A DNA stretch of 64,000 nt from Eledone cirrhosa (taxonomy: Eukaryota), in NCBI GenBank assembly GCA_964016885.1, contig OZ024753.1:46066001-46130000 (forward strand), written 5' to 3'. Shown in pieces: positions 58,266 to 58,630 of the stretch (positions within the stretch are counted from its first letter, which is position 1; each line of letters begins with the position of its first letter). The translations under genes and the position numbers were made by a program. The notes under the pieces are model-generated. The model was not told the DNA's origin and ran no database searches. It was given only the letters and a program-made list of their open reading frames with translations.

Positions 58266-58630
58266 TATAATGTAAGATCAAAAGATGGTTAAAGGAGTTC
58301 CATGTATTTTATTATGCGCACTTCAAAAACAAACATCATCATGCAATAATATTTGTGTTTTCATCAGATAAAACAGGAGAACATGATATGAAGGCTAAAA
58401 AACACTTGTGGATAGTGCAGTTTTAAATCAACATGTTTTATCTGATGAAAACACAAATATTATTGCATGATGATGTTTGTTTTTGAAATGCGCATAATAA
58501 TAAAATACATGGAACTCCTTTAACCATCTTTTGATCTTATATTATGTATACTCCAGTCCTACAAACTGTAGAGTGCTTCTTATCCGATATCTGCATTGCT
58601 TTATTGTACTACAATAAAACTCACCTCCTA
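58266..58630 (+). mobile_element. Penelope-like pseudo-LTR with about 110-bp inverted arms (58266-58375 / 58434-58545)
   Basis: Arms are near-perfect reverse complements around a 58-bp spacer; bounded by (TA)n on both sides; gtagagtgct motif at 58568. Confidence 0.8.
58434..58508 (+). ncRNA. Type I hammerhead with palindromic stem III (dimer-type)
   Basis: tgttttat-CTGATGA (58442)-aaac...gttt-GAAA (58485)-TGCGCA-TA-ataataaaata; the inverted copy has GAAG but an exact stem I. Confidence 0.68.

Follow-up and report, generated by a model that had tools for sequence, protein, structure and literature searches.

The cassette lies at 58 kb of an AT-rich, microsatellite-crowded window (the whole 64-kb stretch of DNA that was analysed), which holds 181 merged TA tracts. 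Two of these directly adjoin the cassette and form the left (58082-58269) and right (58632-58683) parts of its target, enclosing an inverted-arm unit of 363 nt. The reverse complement of 58262-58375 aligned locally with 58434-58550 over 114 columns, of which three were mismatched, with a single gap of 3 nt. If the arms are taken only as far as the TA boundary (58270-58375 and 58434-58542), two substitutions and a 3-nt ATA insertion separate them. The alignment confirms the preliminary description of ~110-bp inverted arms between two (TA)n tracts, each arm with its own lesion: GAAG in the left and the ATA insertion in the right. Based on the two substitutions, arm divergence is ~2% (CI 0.2-6.5%), calculated over 112 columns, the count to the TA boundary being 106. 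The arms meet in an 8-bp palindrome (58430-58437), and a target-site duplication is indistinguishable in the (TA)n flanks.

The left copy, delimited by contig joints, runs on the minus strand from 58434 to 58270 and consists of an upstream segment, a hammerhead and a short 3' end that passes into (TA)n. The right copy (58434-58632, plus strand), delimited by contigs and alignment, is 5'-truncated and has a long 3' end. Folding and motif scanning place a type I hammerhead at 58305-58375 (minus strand) in the left copy and at 58434-58507 (plus strand) in the right, the latter starting at the outer edge of helix I. The right copy closes with an optional 'tail' of 82-90 nt (58551-58632, plus strand, the start being ambiguous within 58542-58550), recognized from contig depth and an exact contig match, which contains a stem-loop and an AC-rich run at its end. 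The 58 nt at 58376-58434 look like the loop of a hairpin. They are the native upstream part of the left minus-strand copy, not a neutral loop, since in each of the three public runs examined for the family (X1, X4 and X6) opposite-strand joints link 58376/58381 with 58434/58436.

Each arm presents CUGAUGA, helix II, a GAAA that reads GAAG in the left arm, AUGCGCAU, an AUA triplet and helix I. The CUGAUGA...GAA(A/G) motif reported for both arms lies at 58442 (plus) and 58367 (minus). On the right, C3 is at 58442, GAAA at 58485-58488 and H17 at 58496, with cleavage predicted after 58496; on the left, C3 is at 58367, GAAG at 58324-58321 and H17 at 58313, with cleavage predicted after 58313. Helices I (8 bp), II (16 pairs) and III (2 bp) are all present around the core. 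The type I core order CUGANGA / GAAA / UH is complete in the right arm, while the left copy has a G at core position 15.1 (58321). G15.1 blocks hammerhead cleavage. Helix II is AU-rich in both arms, its 16 pairs including one mismatch, and helix III consists of 2 bp and a tetraloop. The self-complementarity claimed for stem III holds: AUGCGCAU, at 58488-58495 in the right arm, is a perfect palindrome. Helix I of the left copy has 8 bp and 5 bp more beyond an internal loop. In the right copy, the ATA duplication cuts the in-register helix to 4 bp, and the predicted probability of the 2.1-1.1 pair is 0.01, versus 0.78 in the left copy; this duplication would impair the right copy, if not certainly kill it. 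The hammerhead fold of a left-type copy lies 4-5 kcal/mol above the minimum-energy fold, and single arms folded without constraint gave z values of -0.12 to 0.45, no better than shuffles. For the whole unit of 363 nt the folding energy is -172.2 kcal/mol (z -20.2), a value reached by none of 100 shuffles.

A relaxed type I hammerhead scan, which missed the copy at 42423, returned four motifs in the microsatellite-stripped window; the same scan of 200 shuffles gave a mean of 0.04 and a maximum of one (8 of the 200 with one motif). A stricter scan for GAAA motifs, with the first helix II pair required, retained only the right arm at this locus. Rfam gave no hammerhead at E<=10 over 57850-58640 or 58420-58530; it gave 364 weak matches across the whole window, and those listed (150) were all microRNA-like microsatellite hairpins. 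Identity as a C/D snoRNA was rejected, its weak scores stemming from the CUGA/UGAUGA words and falling far below the gathering scores. Searches of JGI metagenomes with the family pattern and of viral contigs with the core pattern gave no matches. A looser core pattern hit 117 metagenome loci, just one of which forms both helices I and II, and blastn found none of the 117 homologous to the element. A separate observation from the metagenomes is contig L010 (1415 nt), whose 129-nt terminal direct repeat indicates a 1286-nt circle or tandem unit. At 556-593 it bears a type I hammerhead with the identical helix III AUGCGCAU, a helix I of 5 bp and a helix II of 6 bp; no Rfam match, antisense core or homology to the window element was found in it. 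The cassette adds a hammerhead family that goes unrecognized by Rfam, with an A10.1-U11.1 pair and a long AU-rich helix II.

Other hammerhead elements occur in the window. At 42248-42519 there is a head-to-head cassette of a second, unrelated family (cores at 42400, minus, and 42423, plus), with a non-palindromic helix III and an extra A after position 9. Its plus arm is short and ends in (TA)n, its minus arm carries a tail of ~58 nt that closes with a CA/TG repeat, and both arms start ~10 nt upstream of the core at a near-perfect hairpin junction. A solo, intact-looking hammerhead element at 57890-58082 (core 57914, plus; helix I 11 bp) resembles the 42 kb family (70.7% over 133 nt), and its 3' end lies on the far side of the (TA)n tract 58082-58269 that it shares with the 58 kb cassette. 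The proposal that several hammerhead families use one fold-back layout holds in so far as the 42 kb cassette belongs to a second family; the layout itself is the known insertion form of Penelope-like elements (PLEs) and not a property of ribozyme families. A possible decayed hammerhead at 15630-15710 (CUGAUGA, a long imperfect helix II and GAAA), ~40 nt before a long TA-rich tract, failed the scan, and a complex unit of inverted and direct repeats at 16927-17461 adjoins (TA)n in a PLE-like layout without a CUGANGA core. Repeats of other kinds are the 3' end of a non-LTR retrotransposon-like ORF (4396-4923; weak DUF6451 match, E 0.003, below cut-off), which opens on a near-perfect 104-bp palindrome that has a (TA)n run at its centre; two related, MITE-like elements of ~310 bp with terminal inverted repeats (5999-6306 and 38393-38709, 77% alike); and, over ~2 kb (33864-35980), strand-biased tandem arrays rich in CAC/ACC whose periods are 30 and 37 bp.

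Public runs gave a view of the family beyond this locus. Of 24 runs listed, 20 contained part of the stretch, with 16 organism codes in all, and six contained half or more of 32 words taken from it; none is registered as RNA. Contigs aligned to 58376-58632 at 80% likeness numbered 3828 in X1, 5 in X4 and 31 in X6. No variant reached 5% at 58485-58488 in these three runs, nor at 58442-58448 or 58485-58496 apart from the 3-nt indel. The common family form is therefore GAAA, and the left-arm G is a private change. The form without ATA was found in 75, 2 and 7 contigs (X1, X4 and X6), the share with ATA not being readable from the data. Loss of GAAA or of stem I pairing from the family consensus, named earlier as what would count against the claim, was looked for in these contigs, and both features are intact. 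The intact ancestor thought to be reconstructable exists as X4 record 9, which shows no other letters over 58434-58517. A helix I G-U pair is replaced by A-U in 13 and 15 loose-end contigs, and no two-sided helix covariation was seen in the family contigs; a G>A variant at 58435 was left out of the helix I count, as it may derive from spacer-side contigs. The common form has A10.1-U11.1, and 15 loose-end contigs have G10.1.

The element has two 3' ends, one short (58550, then (TA)n) and one tailed. (TA)n follows 58550 in 32 contigs and forms loose ends in 32 and 26 contigs, and X4 record 13 is an exact match to 58538-58632. Summed depth drops ~2.0-fold (X1) and 3.4-fold (X6) past 58550, these sums being a soft measure that overcounts, varies with graph branching and does not give copy numbers. 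In the other direction, some copies continue upstream past 58434 for 207 and 218 letters in X4 and X6 and in 28 mixed contigs of X1. The continuation is visible as 30 letters only, of which 28 agree between X4 and X6, two organisms. A splice acceptor considered in the upstream segment was dropped, its AG being AA in a 13-contig loose-end consensus. Long X1 family contigs differ by ~8-15% from the 58 kb locus, with the qualification that long contigs are biased towards divergent copies.

Head-to-head joints fill at least 23 rows in X1, corresponding to at least 19 distinct junction pairs. All 19 pairs listed leave the upstream segment at 58426-58435, and 17 do so at 58431-58435. The partner arms at the junctions listed start at 16 different places between 58476 and 58605, inside the tail in 11 of the 19 pairs, and mostly only A or AT stands between the arms. 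The tally covers ~40 observable positions; junctions further upstream are invisible to it, and ones like that of the 58 kb locus show no joint. The family hot spot is 68 nt upstream of the core, and the right arm at 58 kb starts 8 nt upstream of it. The context at 58434, TCA(+1)TAT, presumably resembles an initiator. No such asymmetry of a fixed and a variable arm was found in the 42 kb cassette, where both arms start at the same point of helix I.

Taken together, the features suggest with good confidence that an endonuclease-bearing (EN+) PLE provided the machinery for the insertion, and that the cassette consists of pseudo-LTR sequence only. It has a hammerhead in a terminal repeat, an inverted 5'-truncated partner, a 3' tail on one arm and an AT-rich microsatellite target, and the head-to-head 5'-truncated partner recurs, beyond the 58 kb locus, in the at least 19 distinct junction pairs of X1. 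Head-to-head copies, an optional tail, a hammerhead and a TA target make up the already known PLE pseudo-LTR layout. The texts on EN+ PLEs (Penelope/Poseidon, Neptune, Nematis and Hydra; Craig et al. 2021, PMC8557442; Arkhipova et al. 2013, PMC3846280) describe a direct copy that faces, head to head, an inverted copy lacking part of its 5' end, an optional tail on one arm, hammerheads in the pseudo-LTR (pLTR), solo pLTRs and microsatellite targets without discernible duplication. In the former, the inverted truncated copy adjoins the 5' end, a 30-40-bp tail is found on one end, hammerheads lie in pLTRs, insertion is biased to TA and microsatellites, and the mechanism is called open; in the latter, head-to-head is the commonest arrangement, one inverted pLTR carries the tail, solo pLTRs occur, the pLTR has an initiator-like (Inr) site and self-priming is proposed. 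The cassette differs in its tail, 82-90 nt against the 30-40 nt of EN+ PLEs, and in having no linked ORF. Naiads target (TA)n and lack canonical hammerheads.

The closest parallel in the 3' ends is the Anolis Poseidon element PAc (Frangieh et al. 2024, PMC11167929), where two internal 3' ends downstream of the hammerhead bound the tail, the target is AT-rich and the long end lies in an AC-rich run beside a stem-loop. According to the main text of that study, the Poseidon protein, predicted to be dimeric, cuts both strands of AT-rich target sites and extends them, two internal RNA start sites bound the tail, and hammerhead cleavage is not required. The PAc ORF starts in helix II, whereas the equivalent ATG frame in the cassette stops after 13 codons. 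No reverse transcriptase (RT) or GIY-YIG ORF was found in the window (172 frames listed, 14 scanned against Pfam without a PLE domain), and no RT/EN ORF in either arm. There are no direct tandem pLTRs in the window, and the contigs are too short for kb-scale tandems. The cassette would work like a PLE pLTR insertion, its link to PLEs being supported by the architecture. If the host is an octopus, as a SINE and the microsatellite load would suggest, the 31 recently active Penelope-like families reported from O. vulgaris are of interest; the main text of that study is silent on ribozymes (PMC13282606). A preprint connects dispersed hammerhead monomers, and retrozymes, with the pLTRs of PLEs (10.64898/2026.07.22.740005).

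Among known hammerheads, those of PLEs with a palindromic helix III (D. virilis, rotifer, shrimp and mosquito; Cervera and de la Peña 2014, PMC4209133) are similar in being type I with a full core, a long helix II, a palindromic 15.2-16.2 segment with loop 3, and dispersed single or opposite-strand copies (pairs in S. mansoni). The text of that paper mentions hammerhead pairs that lie on opposite strands at a distance of 100-700 bp, as well as variants whose helix III is small and palindromic. Its minimal motif has no helix III or loop 3, an extra base between 9 and 10.1, and a helix I of 4-5 bp. The cassette departs from it, with a helix II of 16 bp, a helix III of 2 bp with tetraloop, no extra base between 9 and 10.1, a common form of A10.1-U11.1 instead of G-C, and a long helix I (8 bp plus extension); the label 'minimal' given to it at first is therefore not appropriate.

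The companion label 'dimer-type' stands in part: the palindromic helix III is compatible with dimers (computed energy -10.5 kcal/mol for the duplex and +4.7 for the hairpin), but hammerheads of the same type also cleave as monomers, and the arms here are inverted. In the relevant text of PMC7229834, a helix III of 2 bp with tetraloop is classed as the invertebrate type, which is the more stable one, cleavage rates of ~0.8 and 0.1 per minute are given for coral and mussel monomers, and an axolotl 2-bp motif was 22% cleaved as a monomer and more as a dimer. Modelling suggests that a double hammerhead between direct copies is possible, and that an intact family ribozyme would probably cleave weakly as a monomer and better when helix III is swapped between direct copies. 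The two arms cannot form a double hammerhead because they lie on opposite strands, and no second same-strand copy was found in the 64 kb, the inverted copy being the only other one.

Of the alternatives, the one that survives best keeps the same element class and has the inverted arm arise by self-priming, a cDNA or antisense strand folding back at the palindrome as proposed in the text of PMC3846280. The 8-bp palindrome at the junction (58430-58437), the near-perfect hairpin at the 42 kb junction and the high arm identity, expected if one arm were copied from the other, all fit this route. The right arm cannot be a fold-back copy of the left, since its 82-90-nt tail is missing from the left arm, and in 11 of the 19 listed junction pairs the partner starts in the tail and has nothing in common with the short-ended arm. 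We regard self-priming as unlikely.

Slightly less probable again is a non-autonomous, retrozyme- or SINE-like element of ~255 nt, mobilized by PLE proteins in trans from its own master copy or tandem array, with 58435 as the master 5' end and a dimeric hammerhead that acts in arrays to give circular RNA. A fixed junction near 58435 and a repeated family without an ORF would be expected of it, as would the duplex-favouring helix III palindrome (-10.5 versus +4.7 kcal/mol). The unit size is within the 170-400 nt given for animal retrozymes in PMC7229834, and in the text of the above preprint (10.64898/2026.07.22.740005) retrozymes are proposed to derive from PLE pLTRs. Like the animal non-LTR retrozymes described in the accessible text (Cervera and de la Peña 2020, PMC7229834; Li et al. 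2026, preprint), the element is short, AT-rich and non-coding, with a type I hammerhead and a 2-bp helix III with tetraloop; retrozymes are, however, defined by tandem repeats and circular RNA, and no tandem repeats of the element were seen in the window or among the joints listed. The tandem arrays suggested in the preliminary description were looked for and are absent from the window, as are the head-to-tail repeats of 150-450 bp that mark non-LTR retrozymes, and no head-to-tail joint of either kind occurs among the joints listed (15 of 50). The element also goes on beyond 58434, and in two organisms (X4 and X6) this upstream continuation is nearly identical. A retrozyme monomer would be expected to start at the cleavage site, whereas the fixed end lies 68 nt before the core, and the T6 run that the unit contains would speak against Pol III transcription.

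The long inverted repeats, TA flanks, many copies and lack of an ORF could also be accounted for by a DNA transposon of the MITE or fold-back kind, inserted at TA with terminal inverted repeats of ~106 bp and a captured hammerhead, but the family contigs largely refute this: the right repeat is not terminal, as the family tail lies beyond the arm, copies differ in the length of their arms, their junction partners are spread over 130 nt, and the centre is contiguous with one arm in native order. We give it very little credence. An assembly artefact (a chimeric fold-back read) or a chance motif, which the blank Rfam result and the lack of a listed contig spanning the exact 58 kb junction might suggest, is practically dismissed by the three sites at which the arms differ, the many other head-to-head junctions in a public run and the motif statistics.

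Under the preferred reading, a PLE pLTR insertion, the hammerhead would be a passenger of the pLTR. At the 58 kb locus the ribozyme is predicted to be inactive by virtue of the core change in one copy, the weakened helix I in the other and a hairpin that locks both. A read-through transcript in either direction would make the antisense arm first, leaving the core locked in the long hairpin (-172.2 and -177.7 kcal/mol in the two orientations, with a predicted probability of 0.0 that the core is unpaired). The hairpin of the cassette is a likely siRNA substrate, and inverted Penelope copies do yield siRNAs in Drosophila, according to the text of PMC3681739. Such cassettes would then be self-silencing hairpins and not dimer-forming ribozyme devices.

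The way in which such insertions are built may be reflected in the uneven arm lengths of the family. At ~2% divergence, compared with ~8-15% for long family contigs, both arms probably stem from one template or event. Under the preferred reading, a GIY-YIG endonuclease would nick both strands of the self-complementary TA target, and each nick would prime cDNA at one of the two internal start sites on the element RNA that bound the tail, so that one cDNA begins at the upstream site and the other at the tail end. The fixed point near 58435 reached by the short-ended arm would most simply be the 5' end of an RNA from the pLTR promoter, while the tailed arm would drop off at variable positions. 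The cDNA 3' ends would finally be joined with 1 nt of overlap, here leaving the 8-bp palindrome. A tentative extension, which we hold as possible rather than probable, is that two RTs, primed from opposite strands within one (TA)n target, load on the same RNA, the upstream one reaching the 5' end (fixed at ~58435) and the tail-primed one falling off early.

If true, this two-RT reading would explain the head-to-head inversion, the one-sided tail and the near-identical arms, together with the masses of solo hammerhead pLTRs in animal genomes, and the thousands of copies make it testable by counting. Neither octopus hammerhead families nor a fixed-versus-variable asymmetry of inverted arms appears in the main texts of the literature covered, which includes few subscription papers; such cases may be present in the figure files of PMC4209133, PMC8557442 and PMC11167929. 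As it stands, the cassette would be an ordinary PLE remnant. It would matter more if the asymmetry holds genome-wide, because the origin of tandem and inverted PLE copies and their microsatellite bias are called open in the text of PMC8557442, and many short, countable insertions would then bear on how PLE insertions originate.
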